From: a virus
Lineage: Duplodnaviria > Caudoviricetes
IMG/VR virus record: IMGVR_UViG_3300032320_001242
Location: 1 to 32,186 of that record
DNA: 32,186 nucleotides
Reading direction: 5' to 3' (one strand)
Shown here piece after piece: positions 1 through 32,186 of the stretch. Each line of letters begins with the position of its first letter. The stretch's first letter is position 1. The translations under genes were made by a program, and so were the position numbers. The notes beneath the pieces were generated by a model. The model did no database searches. It had not been told where the DNA came from and saw only the letters and a list, made by a program, of their open reading frames with translations.

Positions 1-123
1 ATCCAAGGGTCTGCGGCTTTGCGCTTTGCCAGGTTGCGTCGCACTGTTTCGTGCATTCGACGCAGTTCAGGAGACGAGTACAGGTGCGTCTCGTCTGCAA
101 CAGCGAAGGACTCTTTGCCGCCG
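1..123. repeat. Terminal direct repeat copy 1 (circular assembly overlap)
   Basis: 1-123 is identical to 32064-32186; the terL reading frame continues across the junction. Confidence 0.95.
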
Positions 124-1750: not shown

Positions 1751-2330
1751 ATTCTCTCGGCGTGTCGAGCAAAAGCCCGAGTCGCGGCCACTCTGCTTTG
1801 TCCCAGCTGTGGCCTTTGCCCCTAAAGCAAGGGCAGTCCTCGGCCGCGCACCTGCAGCCGTGGTCTCTGCACAAGATGAGCCCCTGGTCTAGCTTGATGA
1901 TCAGCTGGCTGGCACAGAACGGGCACCGAAGCCCAGTGCGCAGAGGCTCTGGCCTGTTGCCTATGACGACCTCGATGTGCGAATGGTGTCCCTTTATCTC
2001 AGTCACGATCTCCTCGAACCACTCAGGTCGGTTGCTTTCTGGCCAGCTGTGAAGACGCGCTGCGCACCAAGCCAACGAACGAGCTGGATTCCTGTTGGGT
2101 GTGGGCTCGTCTTGATCTGCGGCGCGCAGTGCGTCTTCCCACCTAAGTGTATCACGGCCGAGCTTGATCTTTGTGTCCAACACGCCAACACGCAACGGCA
2201 TTCGAGGGCCTGGGACGGCGCGTGCCCCACTAGGGCCAGACCTGCCTGGGAGCATCGCAGCCCCGAGGCGAGAGTACCACTCGACTAGGTCGAGGGTTAA
2301 GACAGCGATCTCAGCTAAAGGGTCAGACAC
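1749..2330 (-). CDS. Hypothetical Cys-rich protein (possible late regulator)
   Basis: Probable GTG start at 2330 overlapping the dut stop; CPFC...C..C..C Zn-binding C-terminus; function inferred from position only. Confidence 0.7.
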   Translation of the reverse strand: MSDPLAEIAVLTLDLVEWYSRLGAAMLPGRSGPSGARAVPGPRMPLRVGVLDTKIKLGRDTLRWEDALRAADQDEPTPNRNPARSLAWCAARLHSWPESNRPEWFEEIVTEIKGHHSHIEVVIGNRPEPLRTGLRCPFCASQLIIKLDQGLILCRDHGCRCAAEDCPCFRGKGHSWDKAEWPRLGLLLDTPRE

Positions 2331-2754
2331 CTGAGCTCCCAAAGCCAGAAGCACCACGCTCTGTTTTGGGAAGCTGATCGACCTGCTGAATAGAGACGCC
2401 AAGGGAGCGGTTCGGCATAAGTATGTACTGAACCAGGCGCATTCCTCGAGTGACGAGGACGGGCTGGTCGGTCATATTCCAGACGCCAGCAAAGAGGGGG
2501 CCCGTGTAGCCGCAGTCAATAACGCCCTGCGCCACCATAAGCCCGTGCTTGCGCAAGGTCGAACTGCGACCAGTCAGCAAGCCCCACGTGCCCTCTGGCA
2601 GCTTGACTGCCACACCTAGCGGCACATCAACGAAGGTCTGTGGCTCGATCGTCGTGTCTGCGTCCACGAACAGATCGAAGCCAGCGTCGTCATCGTAAGC
2701 CTTTGCAGGCCCTTGCGCGGTTTCAGACAGCGCGGTCCACAGTAGGTCACTCAC
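2323..2754 (-). CDS. dut: Trimeric dUTPase
   Basis: All five motifs present: DAGFDL, GRSS, GVIDCGYTG, RLVQ, RGASGFGSSG. Confidence 0.93.
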   Translation of the reverse strand: MSDLLWTALSETAQGPAKAYDDDAGFDLFVDADTTIEPQTFVDVPLGVAVKLPEGTWGLLTGRSSTLRKHGLMVAQGVIDCGYTGPLFAGVWNMTDQPVLVTRGMRLVQYILMPNRSLGVSIQQVDQLPKTERGASGFGSSGV

Positions 2755-3130
2755 TCCAGTCCCCCTCGAACTCCTTCATCGAAGCGACGACTGGCACTTC
2801 AAGCTCTGCCAATGCGACGCTGTTCTGCCCGATGTCGCCGAGCACGACGACTGGGATATTGTGGTCAACAGCGTGCTGAATCTCGAGCACGGTGCCCACA
2901 GTCAAGACGCCACGCACCAGCACGGCGATGACGATGTCAGCCCTGGACAAAAGCGCCAGGTTCGCGTCGTGCACGGTGCCGTCTGGTACTAAGTCGGTCG
3001 GAGCAGTCCACGCAGCCGACGGGTCATAGACCCAGGCTTTGTCTTTGTACGACTCCTTCACTTCGGCCTTTAAGCGCCCGATCTCAGTGCCCTTGGCAAA
3101 GTCGATGGGTGCTGCTAGATAAACGATCAT
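2747..3130 (-). CDS. Nucleoside 2-deoxyribosyltransferase superfamily protein (Rcl/DNPH1-like nucleotide N-glycosidase)
   Basis: VYLAAP...VYDP...HDANLALLSRADIVIAV...TVGTVLEIQHA...IPVVV; catalytic Tyr and Glu positions retained. Confidence 0.8.
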   Translation of the reverse strand: MIVYLAAPIDFAKGTEIGRLKAEVKESYKDKAWVYDPSAAWTAPTDLVPDGTVHDANLALLSRADIVIAVLVRGVLTVGTVLEIQHAVDHNIPVVVLGDIGQNSVALAELEVPVVASMKEFEGDWSE

Positions 3131-3531
3131 TTGAAATCCCCCCAGTGTCCGAAGGCGCGAGAGAACTGCGCCATCTTGGTGTAAATAGCGATATCGTGCC
3201 AGGTGTCGTCGCTTGGTGATCTGCCGTCGGCATACGCGCCGATCAGACGGGCGACTTTGCCCAGCAAGTAGAAAGCGATGCCGAGCTCCTCGTTTGTGAC
3301 CTTGGTTGGCTTGCCGATCATCTGCGACATAGCGAAGCCGATGATCTTCAAGTCAGCGCTGCCGTACTCGATCGCCTTTGGCAAGACGTCGCCGAGTTCG
3401 TCATTCGCGGTCTGTGTCCACCAACCGACAAGGTCGTCAGTGCTGGTCTCCCATTTCGGGTTGTCCTCGCCCGACAGGAACCTGGCCAGGTTGCGCCAGT
3501 CGTTCGGGTTGTCCTTTGGGTTCTCTTCCAT
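3127..3531 (-). CDS. DUF1599/Nmad1-like all-alpha (MazG-fold) protein
   Basis: K..EYGS.D, GKVARL, DDTWHDIAIYTKM pattern; ATG 3531 overlaps the purZ stop (TAATG). Confidence 0.65.
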   Translation of the reverse strand: MEENPKDNPNDWRNLARFLSGEDNPKWETSTDDLVGWWTQTANDELGDVLPKAIEYGSADLKIIGFAMSQMIGKPTKVTNEELGIAFYLLGKVARLIGAYADGRSPSDDTWHDIAIYTKMAQFSRAFGHWGDFK

Positions 3532-4559
3532 TAGAGCCACGCCATCGTCGTCGGGCTGGTGCCAAGCAAGCCGACAGAAGCGCCGATCTGCGCCTCGATC
3601 TCTTGAATGCAGGCCTTCTGCACGTCGTCGAGTTCGACCTCGCTCTTGCCGTGCAGCTCTGGAAAGAGGTAGTCGAACATAGTCAGCGCCACCTTGACGG
3701 TTGGTGCGCCGCCGTTCGCGATGATCGCCTGGCGCACTAGGCCAGGGTCGAACTGACCGACACGGCGAATCTTCTTAGTCACTGTCGTGCGTTCTGGCTC
3801 TATGCCAAGCGCGTCCCAGCTGGTCTCGCCGTCAAGCGGCCCCGAGTTACCAGACACGCGAATCGGGTAGGTGCGAGCCGTGACCCAGACGGTGAAGAGA
3901 TCGACGGCTTTGTCCCAGGGGCTGATGCCAGCCTGGCCCAAGAAGTCGATCGCTCTGCAGTCCTGTGAGGTGCAGAAAGGATAATAGCCTGCGTGCAGGC
4001 CTAGGCCGTAGCCCTGTGTGCCCTCGATCAGGGCGGTGCCGCCTCGAGCCAGGTGCTCACGAATCAGGCGAGAGGTGTCAACGCCGCCGCCGTACAGATC
4101 TGCCTTGCGCATTAAGCGGTCGGCACGAGCTGCACCGATGCCCTTGCTGGTGCTGCCGACTCGCTCGGTCATTCCACCGTCGGCTTCGATGTCGTGGTGA
4201 CGAGGCTCCAGAATGGTAGCCTGGTCGTCGATGAGCAGACGAGCGGTGGCTTGGTAGCCTGCTCTGTCCAGCTGCTCGAGTTCGTCATTCAGCACCTGCA
4301 TATCGATCTCTGAGCCTGCTGCGATGATCAGGTCAGACTCTGGTGCTGTTACTGCGTTGACTGGCACGGTGCGCAGTCGCCAAGCGAAGTCTGCCTCGCC
4401 GTCTGGTCCTTTGCCGTGCACTGTGTGACCAGCGTTTGAGCCTGCCACTCTGATGCCCATAAACGGCACCTGGCTGGTCGCAGATAGATGACCTGCGACT
4501 GCTCCTTTGCCTTCACTTCCGAACTGACCGCCTACTACAGCGATGAGGTGTCCTGCCAT
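3531..4559 (-). CDS. purZ: PurZ/PurZ0-type N6-succino-2-amino-2'-deoxyadenylate synthetase (PurA homolog)
   Basis: GGQFGSEGKG (Ser replaces PurA Asp13), GSNAGHT, GSTSKGIG, EGTQG, YPFCTS, TTVTKKIRRVG, TMFD; compact 342 aa. Confidence 0.88.
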   Translation of the reverse strand: MAGHLIAVVGGQFGSEGKGAVAGHLSATSQVPFMGIRVAGSNAGHTVHGKGPDGEADFAWRLRTVPVNAVTAPESDLIIAAGSEIDMQVLNDELEQLDRAGYQATARLLIDDQATILEPRHHDIEADGGMTERVGSTSKGIGAARADRLMRKADLYGGGVDTSRLIREHLARGGTALIEGTQGYGLGLHAGYYPFCTSQDCRAIDFLGQAGISPWDKAVDLFTVWVTARTYPIRVSGNSGPLDGETSWDALGIEPERTTVTKKIRRVGQFDPGLVRQAIIANGGAPTVKVALTMFDYLFPELHGKSEVELDDVQKACIQEIEAQIGASVGLLGTSPTTMAWL

Positions 4560-4891: not shown

Positions 4892-5051
4892 CTTCTTTCT
4901 CCTGTCCAGGGTCTAGCTCCGAGTAACTGACCGACCGCCCCCCCTTATAGGGGGGGGCGAAGTCGGTCAATATGCTCTCCGCGTGTGCCGATACCTGACC
5001 GACCCCGAGGCGGTGAATATCGGTCAAGTCGGTGAATCTGTTTTTACTCAT
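4884..5051 (-). CDS. Possible small protein overlapping the candidate origin
   Basis: MSKNRFTDLTDIHRLG..., ends overlap both neighbouring genes; may be incidental to the repeats. Confidence 0.35.
   Translation of the reverse strand: MSKNRFTDLTDIHRLGVGQVSAHAESILTDFAPPYKGGRSVSYSELDPGQEKEGA
4928..5035. other. Candidate replication origin: C7-TTATA-G8 palindrome with TGACCGA iterons
   Basis: TGACCGAC-CGCCCCCCC-TTATA-GGGGGGGGCG-AA-GTCGGTCA (4928-4969); further TGACCGA/TCGGTCA/TCGGTGA at 4996, 5020 and 5029; just downstream of the primase-helicase. Confidence 0.5.
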
Positions 5052-7101
5052 CGAGCAGCCCTTCGAAGCTCTGCAGCATACCGACAGCGAAGGGCTTGCG
5101 GTGCTTGAAGTAGCGGCCGTTGCCCTGAACACGCAGCTCCAAGAAGCCTCTGTTCTCCAGCCCAGCCAGTGCCTGCTTGATCTGGTCAGAGCCGCCCTCG
5201 ACCACCTGAATGATCTGGTTGGTGCTCATCTCTTGGCCGTGCCCTGCCATAAACTCGGAGACGCGCTGCATCAAATGATCGCGAGCCGAGAACTGGACTG
5301 AGCCGCCAGAGATGCCTATTTCGATCTTGTCACCCTGTGAGACCAGATCGGCGGTGCCGATGTAGCTGGCCTCGAGCGCGATGCCACGGACGAAGCCTGG
5401 GCGATCTTTCGTCACTTTAAGGCGCAGCTTACCGTTGGAGCCTCGACCGAAAGGCATCTCGACATCGACCGAGATCGCGACCCCGTCAATATCGGCGCGC
5501 TTGGCCTGGGCACCGATAGCGTAGTTGCCTCGCGTGTCCTTGCTCTTTGTCACGTGATCGATCGTCAAGACCGCCGCACCCCAAAGGCGCAGGGGTCGAA
5601 GCACGACCTGGCTGAACTGCGTGGCGTCTTTATTCTTTTCGAGGTCCAGGCCCAGCAGGTTCATCGCTGCATTGACCCCGTCCATCACGAGCAGGCTCGG
5701 GCGGCCGTCTCTGATCGCTGGAAGAAGCGCCTGCTGAGCTTCGGCGTCGTATGGGCCGTCTGGGTTGGCGTAGTGGAACTGCTCGAAGTGGTGTTCCTGG
5801 ACGCCGAGCGCTTTCAAGCGGTTGCGAATGCCCCGACCTGAATCCTCGAAGTCCACGTAGAAAACGGTGTGCCCCTTGACTAGCTCCTGGCGCACGGCTT
5901 CCAGTGCCACCCAGGTCTTTCCAGACTCTGATTCGCCGAAGATCGCGTTGATCTTTCCAGCATAGAGCAGTGCCTTGCCGTCGGTGCGGTACAGGACGCA
6001 AGGCTCGGGTTCTGAGTCCTCTGCCGCCCAGTCGAGCTTCTTTGGGTGCCAGCTAGTGGTCGGCTCTGTCGCCTCTGGCGCCTGGAAGTCTGGCGCTGGC
6101 GCTTCGAGCATCTGCGAGACATCGACCAGCTGCAGGCTCGGGCTTGAAGTACCGAAGCCGAGATCGCGCAGGGCTCCAGCCGCTGCCTTGAAGTCGCCGC
6201 CGTGATTGACCAGCGTGTAAACCGCGAACTTGCTGTAGGCGCGCTCAGACTCGAACTGCGTGCTGGTGCTAAAGACGTAGAAGAAGTCCTGGCCGTCGAA
6301 GCCCGTGGTGGCCGAGATGCCGTCATTCTTTCCAGGCCTGCGCCACGCGGTGGTCGGCCCCTTGGTGTAAACCTTTGACCAGCCCAGAGGTAGCAGCAGC
6401 TCGTCCCAGCTGGTCTTGTCGCCGAAGTCGTCTCCTGGCAGTAGGCCATCGGTCGGCTAGACCGTCACTTCTGACGCCACCACTGAGGCCTTGGGCAGCT
6501 GGTCGAAATACTTGAAAAGGCTGTGCAGCGAGTCGCGCTCGTCCTGCGTCAGAGTCGGAATCGTCTCGATCGAGCCTGAGATCAGCTGCCAGCCGCGCCC
6601 TGAGGGGTGGCAAGCGCCGCCCGTTGGCGCGACCACGACATAGCCGCCCTCGCCGCGAGTTTCGACCAGGACATCGACCCCGTCGTTATCGCCTGGTCGC
6701 CTGGCCAGCTTCGTGTTGCCTGGCACCTGCCCGTCTATGCGATAAAGCCAGTGCAAGCCGCCGCTTGGCGTGATCTCGCAATAGCCCGAGTTAATCCGTT
6801 CCCAGAGGTCGCCGAGCCCGATCTGCTGCGCCATATCGCGCGCCTGAGTGTGCAGCCCTGCGGCCACCGCCCGTCCTTCCAGCTCTAGCATCTCGAGGTT
6901 GCCGCTTATGTGCCCAGTGATCAGCCCGACCCCTTGCGAGGTCTCGAACCACTTGCGCAGGTTGTCCTCTGTCGGCATCTCGCTCTGGTATCGCTTCCAG
7001 CTGTCTAGCGCTGGCCTCTTGCTGCCGTCGCTGGCCACTGGCACAACCGAGCAGCCAGCTGCTGCGAAGCGAAGTGCTGCCGCAAAGATATCGATGGTCA
7101 C
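5044..7101 (-). CDS. Bifunctional primase-polymerase fused to an AAA_25/RepA-like helicase; one in-frame TAG at 6457-6459
   Basis: GTG 7101 coupled to the upstream stop; Prim-Pol motifs (KRP, GVGLITG, LELEG, TPSGGLH, ETRGEGGYVVVAP); ATPase motifs GESESGKT, YVDFE, LLVMDG, IDHVTK; the two ORF-track halves are in the same frame. Confidence 0.85.
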
Positions 7102-10334: not shown

Positions 10335-10375
10335 GTAAAGCACGCCCCGCGAGCGCCTGTCAAAGCGACACGCCG
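10335..10375 (-). promoter_or_regulatory. Possible promoter for the replication module
   Basis: GTGTCGCT then TTGACA (10363-10358) at the purB stop, followed by an AT-rich TTTACTTAT; the -10 element is imperfect. Confidence 0.35.
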
Positions 10376-11595
10376 CTCTGAGCGGCCGCTGCGAGCATCG
10401 CGCGCAGTCTGGCCAGAGCTTCGAAGGTGTGGTCGATCTGTGGTGCTGGACAGCTCTCGACGGTGCCCAGCTTCCGCGCCTCTTCATAAGCCTGGTCCCT
10501 CGACAGGCCTTCTCGGATTAAGCGGTTCATCTTGGTGGTGGTGCCTTCGTGCTTAATATTTCGACGCATACCCTCGTGGTTGATGTCGAGCTTGCCCACA
10601 AGGTCAGAAGTCGAAAGAAGCACGTGCTCGGTGATCGCACATAGATCTGGGAGAGCGATTCGCTCGACAGATGAGTGCGAGATGTCGCGCTCGTGCCAGA
10701 GCGCTATGCCCTCGGTGATCGGCATAACATAAGACCGCGCTAGCCGTGCCAGGCCAGAGACCTTCTCGGCCGTAATCGGGTTGCGCTTGTGCGGCATTGA
10801 AGACGAGCCCCGCTGCCCCTTGACGGTGCCTTCAAAGATCTCGGCCACCTCGCTGCGCTGTCCGTGCCTGATCTCCAGAGCCAGGGCCTCGCAGACTGTT
10901 ACGATATTGGCCAGGCTGTAAGCCCAGGCGCCGAGGCTGTCTCGCATAAGCACCTGCGTCGAGCTGTCTGGCACGTTCAGGCCCAGCGCTCCACAGACTG
11001 CGATCTCGACGTCTCTGGGAACGTGCACGTAGTTGCCTAGCGGCCCCGAGATGTGGCCGACCCTGACCTGATCTGCTGAGGCCACAAAGCGATCGAGCGA
11101 TCTGGCCAGTGCTAGTGTGATGTCTGCGACTCGGTAGCCCCAGCTGGTCGGCTCGGCCGCTTGTCCGTGGGTGCGGCCCTGCCTGGTCGTGCCTCGGTGC
11201 TCAGTGGCGTGCGTTATTAGCTCGGCCAGGAGCGTGTAGCCAGCGTTGCCGATGAGCACATTGGCCTGGGTCAAGATCAAAGCCTGAGCTGTCTCGACCA
11301 CGTCAGAGCTGGTCAGCCCGTAGTGCAGCCAGCGATGAACGCCTTCGTGTTCGGTGTTTTCTTTCCAGGCTGCCAAGAACGCCATAAGGTCGTGGCGCAG
11401 CGTCTCCTCTTGAGCACGCACTTGCTCCAGTGTCGGCCTGAGCGTCAGCTCGAGGTGCATATGCATATCGGGCGGCACGATACCGAGCTGCCCCTGCGCT
11501 TTCATCACCTCGATCTCGACGGCCGCCCAGTGCAGGGCTTTGTTGGCGTCGCTCCAGACCAGGCTCATCGGTCGCGAGCAGTAGCGGTCGATCAC
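10360..11595 (-). CDS. purB: Adenylosuccinate lyase (phage-encoded)
   Basis: Start re-called at GTG 11595 (MIDRYCSRPMSLVWS); HDLMAF, HYGLTSSDV, GRTHGQAAEPT, signature SSSMPHKRNP, LWHERDISHSSVER; 411 aa. Confidence 0.93.
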   Translation of the reverse strand: MIDRYCSRPMSLVWSDANKALHWAAVEIEVMKAQGQLGIVPPDMHMHLELTLRPTLEQVRAQEETLRHDLMAFLAAWKENTEHEGVHRWLHYGLTSSDVVETAQALILTQANVLIGNAGYTLLAELITHATEHRGTTRQGRTHGQAAEPTSWGYRVADITLALARSLDRFVASADQVRVGHISGPLGNYVHVPRDVEIAVCGALGLNVPDSSTQVLMRDSLGAWAYSLANIVTVCEALALEIRHGQRSEVAEIFEGTVKGQRGSSSMPHKRNPITAEKVSGLARLARSYVMPITEGIALWHERDISHSSVERIALPDLCAITEHVLLSTSDLVGKLDINHEGMRRNIKHEGTTTKMNRLIREGLSRDQAYEEARKLGTVESCPAPQIDHTFEALARLRAMLAAAAQSGVSL

Positions 11596-11723
11596 TTCTT
11601 TGTGTAGTCTTTCAGTGCCTGGTTTATCACTTCGGAGACGCTGGTCTCCTCTCGCTCTGCCAGCTTGCGCGCTGCTTGCCATAGGTGGTCCGAGACTCGG
11701 ACGCTTCTGATCGGTGTGCTCAT
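11592..11723 (-). CDS. Ribbon-helix-helix DNA-binding protein
   Basis: Own translation MSTPIRSVRVSDHLWQAARKLAEREETSVSEVINQALKDYTKK; GTGA overlap with purB. Confidence 0.8.
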   Translation of the reverse strand: MSTPIRSVRVSDHLWQAARKLAEREETSVSEVINQALKDYTKK

Positions 11724-11873
11724 TCATATCCCTTCGAATAGGCACTCGGCTGCCGTGCCCCAGCAGTAGCCAGAGCCCGTCCACCAGAGATGCCCACTCA
11801 CGTAGTAAATGACGACGATCGCCGCCAATATTAAGATAGCGCGAACGCGCTTGCCCCGCTTTGTTAGCTTCAT
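11724..11873 (-). CDS. Small membrane protein
   Basis: MKLTKRGKRVRAILILAAIVVIYYVSGHLWWTGSGYCWGTAAECLFEGI; basic N-terminus plus a TM segment. Confidence 0.7.
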   Translation of the reverse strand: MKLTKRGKRVRAILILAAIVVIYYVSGHLWWTGSGYCWGTAAECLFEGI

Positions 11874-12043
11874 TTGACCAGCCACCAGCCAGCGTTCAGC
11901 ACGCCATTGACGAAGCGAGCCTGGGCCTCTTTGGGGCCGACGCCGCCGTAGAAAGTGACGGTCTCCAGCCAGCTGTCCTGGCCGTTGGTTACTAGCGCGG
12001 CCACCTGCCAGGCGCCGCTTGACTTGACGCGGAATACGTTCAC
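11870..12043 (-). CDS. Hypothetical protein
   Basis: GTG start after GAGGAG; MNVFRVKSSGAWQVAALV...; coupled at both ends. Confidence 0.65.
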   Translation of the reverse strand: MNVFRVKSSGAWQVAALVTNGQDSWLETVTFYGGVGPKEAQARFVNGVLNAGWWLVK

Positions 12044-12195
12044 GCTACGAACTCCTCGATCTCAACGACGCTCCTGATGGCTGAGGCCTCGGTGATGCCA
12101 ACGAAGGCGCCTTTCCAGAAGTACAAGCCGTCCTGCTTTATAAGTGCCAGCCTAATCGCGTCGTGCAGCATCGCTATCGAAGTCAGCTCGCTCAT
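12040..12195 (-). CDS. Hypothetical protein
   Basis: MSELTSIAMLHDAIRLALIKQDGLYFWKG...; TAATG and GTGA overlaps. Confidence 0.65.
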   Translation of the reverse strand: MSELTSIAMLHDAIRLALIKQDGLYFWKGAFVGITEASAIRSVVEIEEFVA

Positions 12196-12500
12196 TAGAG
12201 TAGGCCCTTGATGATCTGAGCCAAGAGCTCGACTGAGATCTCGCCGCGAATGCTGATCTTGTTGGCCAGCATCTGGTTGCCCTCGAAGCGAATGACGTCG
12301 ATCTCGTTGTCGTTGTCCACCACGCGCACGCCCTCTGCGAAATAGGTCTGGCCGTTGCGAGTGATGTAGCCAGTTTGTTCTTCTGTCCAGACGTCCACGC
12401 CACCGAACTCGTTGTACTGTGGCACTGCGCAGTCGCCGCCTTCGATTACGAGCTCTACTGCCTTGTCGATCTTTGCCGCTGTTGTTGTTGCTGTTGTCAT
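12195..12500 (-). CDS. Hypothetical early protein
   Basis: ATG 12500 follows the shared leader AAACGGAAGGCAAGAAAATG; MTTATTTAAKIDKAVELV... Confidence 0.75.
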   Translation of the reverse strand: MTTATTTAAKIDKAVELVIEGGDCAVPQYNEFGGVDVWTEEQTGYITRNGQTYFAEGVRVVDNDNEIDVIRFEGNQMLANKISIRGEISVELLAQIIKGLL

Positions 12501-12626
12501 TTTCTTGCCTTCCGTTTTTAGGGGCCTTTCCCCGTCCTTATAAGATAAGAATACCAGATCGTGCATACGCTGTCAATACAGAGATCGGCGTGTCGCGGTG
12601 TTAGCTTGATCACACCGCGACACGCC
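12501..12626 (-). promoter_or_regulatory. Promoter cassette copy 1
   Basis: TTGACA (12576-12571), GCGTATGCACGATCTGG, TATTCT; TGTGA-N6-TAACA box 12599-12614 lying inside a 15-bp perfect inverted repeat 12587-12626. Confidence 0.85.
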
Positions 12627-12631
12627 TGGAC

Positions 12632-13063
12632 TCAGTAACGCTCGTTGCAGCTGTGGCAGCGCCAGTGGTTGACGGGCCCCCAGCTGTGCCAGGTCAGGCG
12701 CTCGCTGTTGACGCACCAGAGCCTGGCAGGTCGGTTGGTATCTGGACGGTCGCGCTGGCTAGCCTCGGCTATCCGCTTCATACGGTCAAAGACGGCCTTG
12801 GCCGAGGCTTCAATACTGCGAGTCCAGCTGTCAGTCTCACCCCAGTCGATACCGCCATAGCCGTAATGCCTGGCGTCAGAGATCAAGTCGTCCCAGCCCT
12901 CTTCATCAAGTCGGACCGTAACGGTATAGACCTGTCGCTTGATGACCTGATCGGTCAGGCCACAGCCGCGGCCTTCGTGGTCGTCGTAGAATATTCGAGC
13001 CACCTTAATGACGATCGGGAACTGAGGTGGGTAGATATTCGGATACTCCAGGGGCGGCCTCAC
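12632..13063 (-). CDS. Hypothetical protein with C-terminal Zn-ribbon-like motif
   Basis: Probable GTG 13063 (MRPPLEYPNIYPP...), coupled to the upstream stop. Confidence 0.7.
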   Translation of the reverse strand: MRPPLEYPNIYPPQFPIVIKVARIFYDDHEGRGCGLTDQVIKRQVYTVTVRLDEEGWDDLISDARHYGYGGIDWGETDSWTRSIEASAKAVFDRMKRIAEASQRDRPDTNRPARLWCVNSERLTWHSWGPVNHWRCHSCNERY

Positions 13064-13212
13064 TGGGCACCCCCCTGGTGGCAGTCGCAGTCGCAAGGGC
13101 GGCGGCGAGACGGAAAGGCGCCCATATGGGCGACCTTGGTACAGCGATCGTGCTGGTCTGTGACGCACCGAGCTGATGTGAAGCTGGTGGCGTACTCTCT
13201 GAGACCTTTCAT
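13060..13212 (-). CDS. Small Cys/His-rich protein
   Basis: MKGLREYATSFTSARCVTDQHDRC...PCDCDCHQGGAQ; GGGAG RBS; first gene after cassette 2. Confidence 0.7.
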   Translation of the reverse strand: MKGLREYATSFTSARCVTDQHDRCTKVAHMGAFPSRRRPCDCDCHQGGAQ

Positions 13213-13242
13213 ATTCTGCTCCCTTCCTGAGCTTGTAATACT

Positions 13243-13309
13243 ATTTTACCAGATCGTGCATACGCTGTCAATACATTCACGGCGCGTCGGGGGTGTGAGA
13301 TTCATCACA
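13243..13309 (-). promoter_or_regulatory. Promoter cassette copy 2
   Basis: TTGACA (13271-13266), same 17-bp spacer, TAAAAT; perfect TGTGA-N6-TCACA at 13294-13309. Confidence 0.85.
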
Positions 13310-13432
13310 TCAGTCCAGATCTTCAAGTCGGTCATATGGCGAGCAGCTACAGCGATCGGCTCGCTCATCGCAGCCGTCGCAGGTCTCGTCTCGGCCCAGG
13401 GCGATGTCGTCATCTTCTCTCGGCTCGCTCAT
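13310..13432 (-). CDS. Small acidic Cys-rich protein
   Basis: MSEPREDDDIALGRDETCDGCDERADRCSCSPYDRLEDLD; ATGA overlap. Confidence 0.6.
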   Translation of the reverse strand: MSEPREDDDIALGRDETCDGCDERADRCSCSPYDRLEDLD

Positions 13433-13581
13433 TCGATCGCCGCGCCTTCCTGCGCCCAGATTCGCTTTGCGAGCTGCTGAGCCTCGTGCTGACGGTTGGC
13501 GCTGTAGTTGTGGTCTTGCGTCAGAGAGCCGAGGCTGGCCAGGACCAGCAGCAGCTCCTCTCGAGTTAGTTCAAGCTTCAT
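13429..13581 (-). CDS. Hypothetical protein
   Basis: MKLELTREELLLVLASLGSL...; GGGAG RBS, ATGA overlaps. Confidence 0.65.
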   Translation of the reverse strand: MKLELTREELLLVLASLGSLTQDHNYSANRQHEAQQLAKRIWAQEGAAIE

Positions 13582-13847
13582 CGGTGCTCCCAGGCTGCGC
13601 GAGGTGCGTAAGGCTCGTCGCGGTTGTCGGTTGTCGCTATCCAGAGGGCGGGCTTACCGACTGCGCTCCAGTAGACGTCGTCGTTCTCGTCCTCGCCGTC
13701 GATCACGACGACGTTGGTGATGATGCCAGCAAGTGGGTAGCCTGGCTGGTAGCCGACGTTCACTGGCTGGTCGCCGAGTTCTGGGTTGTCGTCCAGCATC
13801 TCTTGAAGCGTCTCGATGAGTTCGTTTAGAGTGGCCACTCTATGCAC
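13578..13847 (-). CDS. Hypothetical acidic protein
   Basis: TLNELIETLQEM...VNVGYQPGYPL...PYAPRAAW; start position uncertain by a few codons. Confidence 0.7.
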   Translation of the reverse strand: MHRVATLNELIETLQEMLDDNPELGDQPVNVGYQPGYPLAGIITNVVVIDGEDENDDVYWSAVGKPALWIATTDNRDEPYAPRAAWEHR

Positions 13848-14019
13848 CTGCCTTCTCGTTTGCGATCAGTTGAAGAGTGAGCTGGTCCTGGTAGTAGCGG
13901 TCTGCGCAGTCTAGGCAGACGATGACGGTCTGGCGGCCTCTGATCTGGTGCGCCAGAATCGTAGGACCTGATTCGCAGCTTGCGCAGCCTACTTCGCAGC
14001 TTGTGCAGAGCAGCATCAT
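13840..14019 (-). CDS. Small Zn-finger-like protein
   Basis: MMLLCTSCEVGCASCE...VCLDC; TAATG overlap. Confidence 0.6.
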   Translation of the reverse strand: MMLLCTSCEVGCASCESGPTILAHQIRGRQTVIVCLDCADRYYQDQLTLQLIANEKAGA

Positions 14020-14222
14020 TATGCACTCACCAAGTCCCAAGCCGATACGAGAGCGTTGTGGCCGATGCCCCAGCTCTCGATCGATTCGAACCACTTGCTG
14101 TCCTCGAGCTGCTTGCCGACTATCCAGCTGCCGCCGATCTTCTGAACGCGAACTGTGCCGCAAGGTGAGAGCCAAAGCTCCTTGTTGATCTGAACCATTC
14201 CGTGCTTTGTTGCTGTTGTCAT
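14019..14222 (-). CDS. Hypothetical early protein
   Basis: ATG 14222 after the shared leader; MTTATKHGMVQINKELW... Confidence 0.7.
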   Translation of the reverse strand: MTTATKHGMVQINKELWLSPCGTVRVQKIGGSWIVGKQLEDSKWFESIESWGIGHNALVSAWDLVSA

Positions 14223-14332
14223 TTTCTTGCCTTCCGTTTGTTGGTCCCTTTCGGGCTTATGGGATAAGCGTACCAGACCGTGCATACGCTGTCAATACAG
14301 AGAGACGCTCGTGTCGTGTTAGTTTGATCACA
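14223..14332 (-). promoter_or_regulatory. Promoter cassette copy 3
   Basis: TTGACA (14295-14290), GCGTATGCACGGTCTGG, TACGCT; TGTGA-N6-TAACA at 14317-14332. Confidence 0.85.
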
Positions 14333-14573
14333 TCAAGTCGCCTGGCGTCTCGATCTTTCGCATCTCTTTGGCGATGATGCGGTTGCCCCAGAACCTGAGC
14401 ACTGGCTGGGGCAGCTGGGGCAGTCTGATCTCCTTGAAGGGCAGAAGGACCAAGATCAGCAGCGGCCAGAAGGCTAGAAAGAAAGCCATCACCGACCAGA
14501 CGAACAGATCGCGCCCCTTGACCAGCGCTACGAACCCGACCACTGGTACGGCCAGGACTGACCACCAGCCCAT
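14328..14573 (-). CDS. Small two-TM membrane protein
   Basis: Hydrophobic segments flanking KGRD...W. Confidence 0.75.
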   Translation of the reverse strand: MGWWSVLAVPVVGFVALVKGRDLFVWSVMAFFLAFWPLLILVLLPFKEIRLPQLPQPVLRFWGNRIIAKEMRKIETPGDLM

Positions 14574-14746
14574 CAGTTGGCCACCTCGTTGTACTCGGAC
14601 AGCGCCTGGGAAAGCTGGCGAATCGAGTCGATCAAGACGTCGCGAATCTCGTCTGGCTCCTGGCGCTCCTCGGCTTCCAGGAGCTGGTTGCCGACGGTGT
14701 ACATCGCCGAAGTGATGCCCGTCCAGACCTCTTTGACGGCGCCCAT
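14573..14746 (-). CDS. Hypothetical protein
   Basis: MGAVKEVWTGITSAMYTVGNQLLEAEE...; TAATG and TGATG overlaps. Confidence 0.65.
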   Translation of the reverse strand: MGAVKEVWTGITSAMYTVGNQLLEAEERQEPDEIRDVLIDSIRQLSQALSEYNEVAN

Positions 14747-14988
14747 TAGAAGGCCACCTTTCCGATCTCTACGACTTCAACGATCTCCAGTGGTTGCAGC
14801 CAGTCGGTTCTAGTGACCATTCGCTGCATCTCGCGCTCTGCCAGCTTTAGCGAGACGTGGAAAGTCGCGGCTGGTGTGGCGTTCAGATCGCCGCGTGAGA
14901 TGTTGCGAAAAATGACTGCGTGGGTGAAGATCTTGTTCTCTGACTTGCGTGTGAGTCCGTATCCTTGGGTCTTGAAGAGCTTTGCCAT
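14746..14988 (-). CDS. Hypothetical early protein
   Basis: ATG after the shared leader; MAKLFKTQGYGLTRKSENKIFTHAV... Confidence 0.75.
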   Translation of the reverse strand: MAKLFKTQGYGLTRKSENKIFTHAVIFRNISRGDLNATPAATFHVSLKLAEREMQRMVTRTDWLQPLEIVEVVEIGKVAF

Positions 14989-15108
14989 TTTCTTGCCTTC
15001 CGTTTGGGGCCCTTTCTGGGCTTATGGGATAAGCGTACCACGCCGTGCATACGCTGTCAATACGGAGAGGCATCGCGTGTCGGCGTGTCGCGTGTGAGGT
15101 TGATCACA
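14989..15108 (-). promoter_or_regulatory. Promoter cassette copy 4
   Basis: TTGACA (15060-15055), GCGTATGCACGGCGTGG, TACGCT; perfect TGTGA-N6-TCACA at 15093-15108; two GACAC motifs. Confidence 0.85.
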
Positions 15109-15126
15109 CCACCGAGATATAGATGA

Positions 15127-23888: not shown

Positions 23889-24302
23889 TTACGGTGTTGT
23901 TGACTTGGTGATGGCGCCTGAGATGGGCCACGTAATCGAGGCCGTCGCTAACTCTCCGACGGAGCCGTTAAGCGGCGTCCACTCGGTGACAAGCACGGAA
24001 CCCGTGTATTTCGGGTTCGTAGCTCCGACGGTCGTGTTGACTGGGCGGCACTCGAAAGCGACTGCTGTGCCCAGAAGTGGGTAGATGATCGACTCGATGC
24101 TCGAAGTCGCATAGTCCTGGTGAAGCTCCAGCGTCAGTGAGTTGTCGGCCAGGCCTGCAACCCTCTTCTTGGCTGTGTCTCCAAAGGCTGTGGTCTCGAC
24201 GATATCGAAGCTCGATGATAGAGTGATGGAAGCGACGTGGTCTGAGATGTCGCTTGAAGCGCCAAGGACGACGTACGCGTTGTTAAGGACGAGGCGTGCC
24301 AT
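23889..24302 (-). CDS. Major tail (tube) protein paralog 2
   Basis: DISDHVASITL...VETTAFG...RVAGL.DNS...NPKYTG...WTPLNGSVGELAT...WPISG. Confidence 0.8.
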   Translation of the reverse strand: MARLVLNNAYVVLGASSDISDHVASITLSSSFDIVETTAFGDTAKKRVAGLADNSLTLELHQDYATSSIESIIYPLLGTAVAFECRPVNTTVGATNPKYTGSVLVTEWTPLNGSVGELATASITWPISGAITKSTTP

Positions 24303-24724
24303 TATGCAACCGCCTTAGTGATCGCTCCAGTGATCGGCCAAGTGACCGAGACCGTTGCAAGCTCTCCGACCGACCCATTAATCGGGGTCCACTCGGAACA
24401 AAGCGCGGTGAAGGTGTATGAAGGGTTCGCAGCACCGACAGCGCTTGAAGTCGGCAAGACCACGACTGTCGTGGTGGTACCGAGCAAAGAAGAGCCGATC
24501 GTGTTAAGAGTCGCTTCGACGTTTGACGCTGCGAAGTCCTGGTGGAACTCGAGTGTCACTGAGTTGTCCTGCAAGCCAGCGACGCGAGTCTTGGCTGCAG
24601 TCGAGCTGAACGCAGTCGTCTCGACGACATCGAAGCTCTGGTTGATGGTGACTGACGCGATGTGATCGCTCAGGTTGACCGAGTTGATAGTGACCTTGGC
24701 GTCGTTTAGAACTATACGGGCCAT
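24302..24724 (-). CDS. Major tail (tube) protein paralog 1
   Basis: NLSDHIASVTI...VETTAFS...RVAGL.DNS...NPSYTF...WTPINGSVGELAT...WPITG. Confidence 0.8.
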   Translation of the reverse strand: MARIVLNDAKVTINSVNLSDHIASVTINQSFDVVETTAFSSTAAKTRVAGLQDNSVTLEFHQDFAASNVEATLNTIGSSLLGTTTTVVVLPTSSAVGAANPSYTFTALCSEWTPINGSVGELATVSVTWPITGAITKAVA

Positions 24725-25936: not shown

Positions 25937-26632
25937 CTAGCTGGTGCGGTTGTGCCTGTCGAGGTGGTGCCTCTCGTCAAGCCAGTAAGTCTTTTGGTGC
26001 GGCAAGATGGCCGCCGTATTCGCGTAGATCGGAAAGCCCAGCTGCTTAATCCTGCGGCAGAATAGCAAGTCTTCACTCACCCACTCGCCGTTGATGGGCC
26101 CGTCCCAGAACCAGCACCAGTCGGTGCCCTGATTCGGGTCCGCAGCTTCGCGCATCTTTTCGAGCACGCTGCGGTGGATTAACATACAGCCAGTTCCACA
26201 GGCTTCGATCTCGAAGATCGCGTTGCGCTTGTAGTCGCTGATCGACGCGAGCCGCCCGTTTGCAGTGGCTTCAAAGATCAGCGGCACGGGCATCGGGTAG
26301 ATGCTTTCGTTGACGTCCCAGGCTCCGAAGTACAAGCCTGCCACGACTGGTCGCTCTTTGTCGTGTGCCGTGTTGATGAGGACATCGAACGCCTCAGCCG
26401 AAAGCTGCTCGTCGGTGTCTATCAACAGAAGCCAGTCTGAGGTGGTTTCGTCCAAGAAGGCCTTCACGACTCGGTTGCGCAGCTTGCTAAGCAAGCCAGA
26501 ACCCCGAGCACGAACGTAAGGACCGAGCCTGGAGCTGCGCGACTGCGTCAGTTGGACCATACGAAGTGCGAAGTCGCCGTTGACCATTCCAGGGTCACAG
26601 ACTCCGATCGATACTTTGTGGCTTGCTTTCAT
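25937..26632 (-). CDS. GT-A fold (GT2-like) glycosyltransferase
   Basis: RNRVV..FL, WLLLIDTD (DxD), GTGCMLIHRSV, SEDLLFC, H.K. Confidence 0.8.
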   Translation of the reverse strand: MKASHKVSIGVCDPGMVNGDFALRMVQLTQSRSSRLGPYVRARGSGLLSKLRNRVVKAFLDETTSDWLLLIDTDEQLSAEAFDVLINTAHDKERPVVAGLYFGAWDVNESIYPMPVPLIFEATANGRLASISDYKRNAIFEIEACGTGCMLIHRSVLEKMREAADPNQGTDWCWFWDGPINGEWVSEDLLFCRRIKQLGFPIYANTAAILPHQKTYWLDERHHLDRHNRTS

Positions 26633-31144: not shown

Positions 31145-32186
31145 CTAGAGCTCGAACGCAAAGAACTGCGTCGCGGTTTTGACTTCTGGCTGGTTGAGCT
31201 GCGCGTCCGTCCTGCCGAGGTAGGCCAGCACTGCAGCGATCAAGCCGTCGATCTTGTGCGTTTGCGAGGGTTTCGATACTTGCCCGTAGCGAGCTGGTAT
31301 CGCGTTCAGTACGTGCCGAGTCAGCTCTGGCGAGCCGTCGTGCTTGAGTCTGCCTTCGAGTGTGTCTTCAAGAAAGCGGTCGAGTCCCTGGCTCATCAGC
31401 TTGCGCTGGCTGGCTGGATAGACTGCGACCACTCGATCAACGAAGGACGTGTTCCAAGCATCGAGGTACGACTGCCAGCCCGAAGGGTCTGCCCAGATCG
31501 AGCGAACGTCGTACTTCTCGAAAGTCTCGCGCACCACCTCATCGACTTCGATGCGTGGCACTTCCCAGCCGTAACCAGCTGGGCCAGGTGGTCGTTCCCA
31601 GCAGGCGATCTGAAAGATCTTGCCGTCCTCGACTCTGCAGGCGACTAAAACAGTAGCGTCGTCTTTGCGACTGCCATCATAGCCAAGCACGACGGGCGTG
31701 CCGTCTGCCAGCTGCTCGGGCTCTGCTGCCTTGTTCCAGGCGACTGAGTCCATATATTTATCGCTGTCGGTGGAAGGCTGGTTCAAAAAATAGCGTCTTG
31801 CATCTGACCCCTTGGTCATTGGGTCCTGTATCTCGTTCACGAGACGGTCGATATCAAGCCAGGCGTAGGCTGGGCCGTATGCGACTGCGAGCGCTTTCTT
31901 AAGCTGCTCGGTGTTCTGCAGATCAGGCACTTCTGGCGCCTGTATGTGATCGAACAAGAGGCCAGGATTCTTTGCTCTGCCTTCTTGCATCGCTATCCAA
32001 AGCCTATGCGTCTGCTCTGCGATCGAGTCCTCACCGACTGCGTACATCGTTGAAGTCTCGAGCATCCAAGGGTCTGCGGCTTTGCGCTTTGCCAGGTTGC
32101 GTCGCACTGTTTCGTGCATTCGACGCAGTTCAGGAGACGAGTACAGGTGCGTCTCGTCTGCAACAGCGAAGGACTCTTTGCCGCCG
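31145..32186 (-). CDS. terL: Terminase large subunit, C-terminal nuclease part
   Basis: RRYFLNQ, LGYDGSRKDDAT, WADP, KIDGLIAAVLA RNaseH-like motifs; continuation of 638->1. Confidence 0.92.
   Translation of the reverse strand, partial: GGKESFAVADETHLYSSPELRRMHETVRRNLAKRKAADPWMLETSTMYAVGEDSIAEQTHRLWIAMQEGRAKNPGLLFDHIQAPEVPDLQNTEQLKKALAVAYGPAYAWLDIDRLVNEIQDPMTKGSDARRYFLNQPSTDSDKYMDSVAWNKAAEPEQLADGTPVVLGYDGSRKDDATVLVACRVEDGKIFQIACWERPPGPAGYGWEVPRIEVDEVVRETFEKYDVRSIWADPSGWQSYLDAWNTSFVDRVVAVYPASQRKLMSQGLDRFLEDTLEGRLKHDGSPELTRHVLNAIPARYGQVSKPSQTHKIDGLIAAVLAYLGRTDAQLNQPEVKTATQFFAFEL
32064..32186. repeat. Terminal direct repeat copy 2
   Basis: Identical to 1-123. Confidence 0.95.

Follow-up and report, generated by a model that had tools for sequence, protein, structure and literature searches.

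A PurZ0-DutZ-DmtZ gene cassette and a phage purB in a complete 32-kb phage genome in which no family A or B DNA polymerase was found

The closest described systems for placing 2-aminoadenine (Z) in phage DNA are the Z-cluster of cyanophage S-2L, which comprises PurZ, DatZ, MazZ and PrimPol (PMC8065100, PMC8342488), and the module of the PurZ0 phages (PMC12884076). S-2L makes Z-DNA without DpoZ, its DNA is fully substituted, and its PrimPol makes no distinction between A and Z (PMC8065100). In PurZ0 phages, DatZ and MazZ are replaced by DutZ, which converts dATP and dGTP to their monophosphates, and by DmtZ, a dAMP hydrolase/transferase that releases adenine and carries out transfer to Z; both were characterised in the PurZ0 phages Ghobes and Wayne, dutZ was reported in all 98 PurZ0 genomes and dmtZ in 85, and the lyase step was assigned in the supplement to the host or to uncharacterised phage proteins (PMC12884076). 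Here, a PurZ0-type cassette and a purB gene are described in the uncultured phage genome IMGVR_UViG_3300032320_001242 (hereafter the window, that is, the whole stretch of 32,186 nucleotides analysed), in which no family A or B polymerase was found. With a probability of about 0.7, this phage makes Z-DNA by controlling the nucleotide pool with PurZ0, DutZ, DmtZ and PurB, without a Z-selective polymerase. The initial annotation had proposed a Z pathway with a different enzyme set in an actinophage; the PurZ0 identity and the likely Z pathway stand, whereas the novelty of the set does not.

The cassette consists of four open reading frames (ORFs), and purB lies apart from it:
3531..4559, minus strand: purZ0, a succino-amino-deoxyadenylate synthetase of PurZ0 type (S15, T258, D296), assigned from NF038379, 7VF6, motifs and trees
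3127..3540, minus strand: post-purZ0 gene, encoding an uncharacterised all-helical protein, a conserved partner of PurZ0 predicted to be a nucleotide-pool enzyme or a PurZ0 subunit
2747..3130, minus strand: dmtZ, homologue of NDT/Rcl-family dAMP N-glycosidase/transferases (38% identity to Ghobes gp53, E 1e-14)
2323..2754, minus strand: dutZ, trimeric-dUTPase homologue of the PurZ0-phage clade (48% identity to Ghobes gp55)
10360..11595, minus strand: phage purB, adenylosuccinate lyase, from TIGR00928 and motifs

The coupling of the four ORFs noted earlier is borne out by their coordinates: the purZ0 stop overlaps the ATG at 3531, the stop of the post-purZ0 gene overlaps the dmtZ ATG, and dmtZ and dutZ overlap by 8 bases. 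Upstream of purZ0 (4559), dmtZ (3130) and dutZ (2754) stand ribosome-binding sites made of a run of five or six G followed by A. The cassette is complete and in the same order throughout the clade of the window, in which PurZ0 identity is 73-99%. Ghobes, with separate dmtZ and dutZ, has the same four-gene order (gp50, 51, 53, 55), as does Archimedes; the window differs from the cultured PurZ0 phages in that the four genes stand back to back without spacers. Another, PolA-bearing PurZ0 lineage (L051-L060, L065-L069, L079) carries purB inside the cluster (purZ0, post-purZ0 gene, purB, dmtZ, dutZ).

By its motifs, model scores and tree position, the synthetase is classified as a PurZ0. The protein has 342 amino acids and carries GSEGKG at 14-19, TTVTKKIRR at 258-266 and TMFD at 293-296, all where the initial annotation had read them. 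The E. coli PurA counterpart of the last motif is TKLD. The NCBIfam PurZ model NF038379 scored 325 bits, above its cut-off of 300, and all five PurA models stayed below theirs (for example, TIGR00184 with 136 against 396 and NF003295 with 209 against 368). The best match in the PDB was 7VF6 (E 7e-86), the PurZ0 of Gordonia phage Archimedes (PMC12884076), compared with 1e-41 for archaeal PurA and 1e-29 for PurZ. Ser in place of PurA Asp13, which marks PurZ and PurZ0 (PMC12884076), is present as S15, and S15 and T258 agree with the PurZ-specific positions (PMC8342488). D296 sits where four PurZ rows carry Asn (TMFD in the window, SMAD in Archimedes, SFAD in Ghobes, NFCN or NFAN in the PurZ rows), so that the position of phiVC8 N297 and S-2L Q308 holds the Asp that separates PurZ0 from PurZ rather than Asn or Gln; an amide at this position conflicts with G (PMC8342488). 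K263 aligns with phiVC8 K267, the Arg303 equivalent, but Lys is not diagnostic there, because several PurZ0 rows have Arg. PurZ0 reportedly prefers GTP as donor, according to a 2023 paper on the enzyme. One sentence of PMC12884076 states the donor preferences in the opposite order.

In quick trees, the window PurZ0 fell outside the PurZ clade (99) and outside a pair of bacterial-type PurA rows (SH-aLRT 100), not within PurA, and inside an uncultured clade (40 of 79 rows, SH-aLRT 99; the second tree used 36 of those 79 rows, near-identical rows and one long branch having been dropped). Support for PurZ0 monophyly was only 82 in one of these trees and left open in the second, with no archaeal PurA sampled. 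It is hardly credible that the enzyme is an ordinary PurA, forming with PurB an auxiliary pair that supplies AMP, or that it makes another purine: D296 is PurA-like and purB is present, as that would predict, but the Ser at the Asp13 position, the PurA scores under cut-off, the grouping with PurZ and PurZ0 away from the two PurA rows, and the coupling to homologues of dATP- and dAMP-destroying enzymes all speak against it.

The labels of Rcl-like glycosidase and dUTPase given before to the next two products agree with their Pfam matches (PF05014, E 1.3e-6; PF00692, E 2.5e-25), which, like the synthetase scores, lie well outside what chance would give. In the putative DmtZ, residues Y4, D10, P37, N57, V78, G79 and E83 correspond to Ghobes Y6, D12, P57, N77, V98, G99 and E103, so the Tyr6/Asn77/Glu103 triad is found together with Asp12 and Pro57. 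The dUTPase homologue belongs, as judged from similarity, to the PurZ0-phage dUTPase clade, since the 136 phage records matching DutZ at E<=1e-22 in a similarity search all came from the six genera with PurZ0 phages. The purB gene, absent from the initial annotation, scored 341 bits with TIGR00928 (cut-off 326), and its product keeps the motifs RH, GLTS, RTHG and SSxxPHKRNP, which are presumably catalytic, as in the PurB of Galactica and Ghobes. Its longest ORF begins at 11784, and a GTG at 11595 is the likelier start, overlapping the stop of a small ORF (11592-11726, minus strand) that by eye looks like a ribbon-helix-helix regulator. A distal purB is also annotated in Ghobes (gp36), Archimedes (gp38) and Galactica (gp75); phage PurB is thus no novelty, since PurZ0 phages of Gordonia and Streptomyces have annotated copies.

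The non-canonical accessory set proposed earlier is excluded as a novelty, because PurZ0-DutZ-DmtZ is a published module (PMC12884076), so that a lack of DatZ and MazZ is to be expected. A DatZ-type HD domain (HD_3) was found in none of five genomes, with a positive control, and in no window ORF scan; DUF550 was found in none of the five, its control being silent too, and had no match in the window ORF scans; DUF5664 was not found in the window by a profile whose first control was silent and whose later control, an Arthrobacter protein, was positive; and MazZ had no match in general ORF scans, which included no dedicated profile for the S-2L type. These results agree with the earlier failure to recognise DatZ or DUF550, within the limits of the controls. 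The window PurZ0 is 44-52% identical to those of cultured PurZ0 phages, and neither side has DatZ or DUF550.

The part that is unusual for a PurZ0 phage is the absence of DpoZ. Neither a first Pfam scan of 59 window ORFs nor a second one of 66 more detected a family A or B polymerase, a six-frame search of the window with PF00476 found none, and tblastn of the window with three PurZ0-phage polymerases returned nothing below E 0.2; the lack of a recognisable DpoZ in the initial annotation is therefore confirmed. All eight clade records, of which four are 92-100% complete, lacked PF00476, and six of eight other PurZ0 records had it, the remaining two being 65-75% complete; PolB was found in none of five clade genomes. 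An incomplete genome hiding a polymerase was ruled out by the terminal repeat, the record class (direct terminal repeats, 100% complete) and the near-complete relatives without PF00476. The window is a tailed-phage genome whose direct terminal repeat cuts terL, and the circular complete genome measures 32,063 bp, in keeping with the compact 32 kb noted before. By genus, PurZ0 and PolA tallies in cultured phages were equal (Arthrobacter 105/105, Microbacterium 18/18, Gordonia 6/6; tallies, not record-by-record pairs), and Galactica has an annotated PolA, which suggests that all cultured PurZ0 phages carry a family A or B polymerase. Unlike them, the window has no DNA polymerase I and nothing that corresponds to a Wayne/Ghobes-type DpoZ-1, its primase-helicase and virion genes are unrelated to theirs, and it is 32 kb rather than 39-83 kb long. 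The features concerned are:
1..123 (copy 32064-32186), no strand: terminal direct repeat, from the terminal repeat and the record class
5044..7101, minus strand: Prim-Pol/AAA helicase, from PF09250 and PF13481
4571..4891, minus strand: ORF upstream of the cassette, with a homologue after the primase in a Z-less sister genome

Only one polymerase-family domain was found in the window, that of the Prim-Pol/helicase fusion. An in-frame TAG (6457-6459, minus strand) splits this gene and is private to this assembly; AAG stands at that codon in all five close relatives and in all three DNA runs spanning it, of which one may be the source sample, and the TAG is an assembly error or a private variant. 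Recoding or programmed read-through was ruled out, as TAG ends 12 of the 48 listed ORFs and the relatives have AAG. Being the sole polymerase-family domain, this enzyme might be the replicative one, turned Z-selective as a third independent DpoZ-like solution, and the primase and exonuclease trees (unrooted FastTree, 8 rows) do split genomes with Z genes from genomes without them. Such a change is nevertheless quite improbable, as the same family occurs in Z-less sisters at 56-58% identity and the only tested case, the S-2L PrimPol, is A/Z-indiscriminate (PMC8065100).

Since no Z-selective polymerase was found, DNA content would be controlled via nucleotide supply alone. By homology, DutZ would convert dATP to dAMP and some dGTP to dGMP, DmtZ would release adenine from dAMP and could pass the sugar-phosphate on to free Z, PurZ0 would join dGMP and aspartate, probably with GTP, and the phage PurB would release fumarate to give dZMP, which host kinases would raise to dZTP. 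For the post-purZ0 protein, the likeliest contribution is a dATP/dGTP diphosphatase activity. The phage Prim-Pol would prime, elongation would probably be left to the unselective host replisome, and the scarcity of dATP would bring Z in opposite T, as in S-2L. The window and S-2L are alike in having no DpoZ and a PrimPol as the sole polymerase-family gene, and in both the exclusion of A must come from the nucleotide pool; the window differs in having PurZ0 rather than the ATP-using PurZ, DutZ and DmtZ rather than DatZ and MazZ, and its own PurB (PMC8065100, PMC8342488).

Three complete sister genomes (G017-G019) share with the window the capsid (73-74%), portal (73%), primase (the identity given above) and exonuclease (63-65%), and no purZ0, dmtZ, dutZ, purB, post-purZ0 gene or PolA was found in them. 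The terminases of the two groups differ (28-32% identity) despite the shared portal. The ORF upstream of the cassette is 26% identical over 109 amino acids (pairwise E 3e-5) to the sister ORF L165:6701-7054, and the downstream flank gave no significant homology with the sister genome (E 0.026). The nearest PolA-bearing PurZ0 relatives, G009 and G010 (SH-aLRT 97-98), have almost no virion gene in common with the window and are ordered purB, primase, PolA, purZ0, post-purZ0 gene, dmtZ, dutZ; in the window clade, purB is followed by sister-type SLT, exonuclease, ssb and primase, then by purZ0. On the simplest reading of this gene order, the replication genes lying between purB and purZ0 would have been traded for a PolA-less block, and the order suggests that it may have been the DpoZ replication module that was swapped out. 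Because the capsid, portal and tail trees mix genomes with and without Z genes (unrooted FastTree, 8 rows), virion-gene exchange between the two groups appears to continue. The G+C content is 52-58% in the Z-gene genomes (G000-G004) and 41-49% in the sisters, a gap that may reflect a host difference or a Z-linked shift. N6/N4 methylases were found in none of 10 clade records and in two of the three sisters, a point that counts indirectly in favour of Z-DNA; C5 methylases were rejected as a group marker, occurring in none of the five near-complete Z-gene records but in two partial ones, and in all three sisters.

Restriction sites served as a proxy for Z in DNA, the sites being taken from a published table of Z-blocked enzymes and the counts compared with a Markov expectation. 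The 21 Z-blocked six-base sites occurred at 0.80-0.90 of expectation in the five Z-gene genomes and at 0.23-0.68 in the three sisters, and 5 of 76 testable site-genome pairs were strongly depleted in the former against 18 of 36 in the latter. The SalI site, still cut on Z-DNA, was seen 2 times against 45 expected. Wholly absent from the window were CCGG (0 of 81 expected), CATG (0 of 71), AATT (0 of 21) and GTCGAC (0 of 18), and CCGG was absent from all four near-complete relatives as well. This test supports Z in DNA weakly, at most, and several further observations weigh against Z-DNA made through pool control. Depletion of sites made of G and C only is likewise milder in the Z-gene genomes (0.61-0.91 versus 0.15-0.35); hosts may differ, because G+C differs between the groups; the compared genomes are related and not independent; AATT is missing, though Z blocks MluCI for the most part; and three of the four relatives are almost devoid of GATC. 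The S-2L cluster with host polymerases in E. coli gave 12% substitution in a plasmid and 4% in the chromosome (PMC8342488), so substitution may be partial here too. DmtZ has no Trp at the aligned W124 place, unlike in cultured PurZ0 phages, and this lid residue was modelled, not mutated, in PMC12884076. The putative Z-DNA is deduced from the genes.

Some of these points suit a phage whose genes are active but whose Z is low or patchy, or serves mainly to sabotage the host dATP pool, so that A-containing sites stay exposed. The avoidance of AATT, CATG and, in relatives, GATC, the low substitution by host polymerases in E. coli and the missing selective polymerase would fit. This is considered unlikely, however: avoidance of CATG and GATC is compatible with Z, because two of three CATG enzymes tested cut Z-DNA and Z blocks Sau3AI only in part; avoidance of certain A-containing sites is seen in cultured PurZ0 phages as well; and S-2L is fully substituted without DpoZ (PMC8065100). 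Synthesis of Z-DNA through pool control is thus preferred.

The gene after purZ0 encodes 137 amino acids from a GTG at 3540 or, likelier, 134 from the ATG at 3531, the start used in the ESM Atlas record. Its product had no match in Pfam, PHROG or NCBIfam; in Pfam nothing fell below E 0.03 for it or for any of 57 aligned family members, two of which touched DUF6378 (best E 0.06). Among 73 viral loci with this gene, purZ0 was present in 69 and directly upstream in 68; the four without purZ0 had at most 160 bases upstream, and one contig is rearranged. The family was found in 31 cultured phage records, including Ghobes gp51, Archimedes gp51, Galactica gp66 and Goodman gp55, and in no Arthrobacter phage (0/105 by tally). 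The one Arthrobacter PurZ0 phage examined has DUF5664 in the slot directly after purZ0, a proven dATP/dGTP diphosphatase family (PMC12884076). DUF5664-1 (PF18909) and the post-purZ0 protein thus have the same slot and a complementary distribution among cultured PurZ0 phages, but no detectable homology (hhalign probability 0.1%), and the protein was rejected as a DUF5664 homologue. The family profile matched 946 clusters (50% identity) at E<=1e-3 and 922 at <=1e-10, and is sharply bounded. P0076 and P0077 each have two matched stretches of the domain, likely tandem copies that would fit a dimeric fold.

The predicted structure is all-helical, with a predicted local distance difference test (pLDDT) score of 83. 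Its next neighbours in BFVD after its own family are DUF6378 (PF19905) and DUF1599 (PF07659, nucleotide-modification-associated domain) proteins at E 0.14-1, with no significant sequence or structure match, so that the 'DUF1599-like' label given before finds a weak structural echo and no Pfam match. ESM feature scores were 0.91 and 0.89 for clusters with DUF6378 or DUF1599 in 14% and 10% of members. In a comparison with MazG-like all-alpha NTP pyrophosphohydrolases, S-2L MazZ (7ODY) aligned over 63 residues (Z 5.2, root-mean-square deviation 2.9) amid generic helical matches. A further point against the proposed pathway is that no known hydrolase matched significantly in profile, Foldseek or VIA searches of the PDB, all three of which returned nothing but generic helical hits. 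The conserved residues E48, K55, E58, D63, E85, K95, R98, D112 and D116 look catalytic, and the protein is probably a further nucleotide-pool enzyme; a metal-dependent nucleotide hydrolase is mildly favoured. It might instead, though with less likelihood, be a binding partner or regulator of PurZ0, as two natural PurZ0 fusions (P0074 and P0198) and the constant position behind purZ0 would allow; yet neighbouring genes often fuse without binding, Arthrobacter PurZ0 phages do without the gene, and the residue pattern speaks for catalysis. A broader scenario is only tentatively put forward, in which the clade, widespread in freshwater, makes full Z-DNA via the host replisome and without a selective polymerase, has swapped the DpoZ module for that of A-DNA phages while still exchanging virion genes with them, and carries after purZ0 a member of a new, large family of Z-pathway nucleotide hydrolases that replaces DUF5664.

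The host is probably an actinobacterium, because WhiB is present in two Z-less sisters and the best cultured capsid matches are mycobacteriophages (37% identity); this part of the initial annotation remains inferential, and the window itself has no WhiB. The phage differs from cultured PurZ0 phages in being uncultured, with related DNA found in freshwater metagenomes. Prokaryotic genomes gave no host, the single hit being a distant PolA-bearing locus outside the window clade, in a 91-kb contig of a Gemmatimonadales assembly (L089:1804-11500) with PolA, purZ0, post-purZ0 gene and dutZ, either a prophage or a mis-binned phage. The 'provirus' labels of G003 and G008 were not accepted: G003 stops just short of the expected purB start, and the labels may plausibly stem from purB having been trimmed off as if it belonged to the host. 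An RNA run (X18) yielded only short, scattered contigs. Elsewhere in the window, a tandem pair of paralogous major tail protein genes (23889-24724, minus strand) is kept in relatives with and without Z genes; a glycosyltransferase-like gene (25937-26632, minus strand) that separates the major capsid gene from the head-tail adaptor gene, conserved in six of seven relatives, possibly serves virion glycosylation; and short near-repeated intergenic segments before small genes in 12000-15100 (similar near 12500, 14210-14330 and 14980-15110) are possible promoter or regulatory repeats.

The PurZ0-DutZ-DmtZ module and phage purB were known; less ordinary are the PolA-less PurZ0 clade, its Z-less sister lineage and the post-purZ0 family. 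In the literature searched, mostly without subscription papers, no paper was found on this clade or this family. PMC12884076 Fig. 5 may already show PolA-less PurZ0 genomes, because 8.2% of PurZ0 genomes are from freshwater (PMC12884076 supplement) and an NCBI uncultured phage protein, P0037, is 69% identical to the post-purZ0 protein. If the DNA is Z-substituted, DpoZ would not be needed in the PurZ0 branch either, and a set of five small genes would be enough to push an unselective replication machinery to ZTGC DNA. This would bear on attempts to increase the incorporation of Z in cells, in which substitution by the S-2L cluster was only partial. The genomes with Z genes and their Z-less sisters form a natural pair for the costs and gains of Z, and the post-purZ0 family, the only conserved member of the PurZ0 cluster still to be characterised, is open to direct assay.

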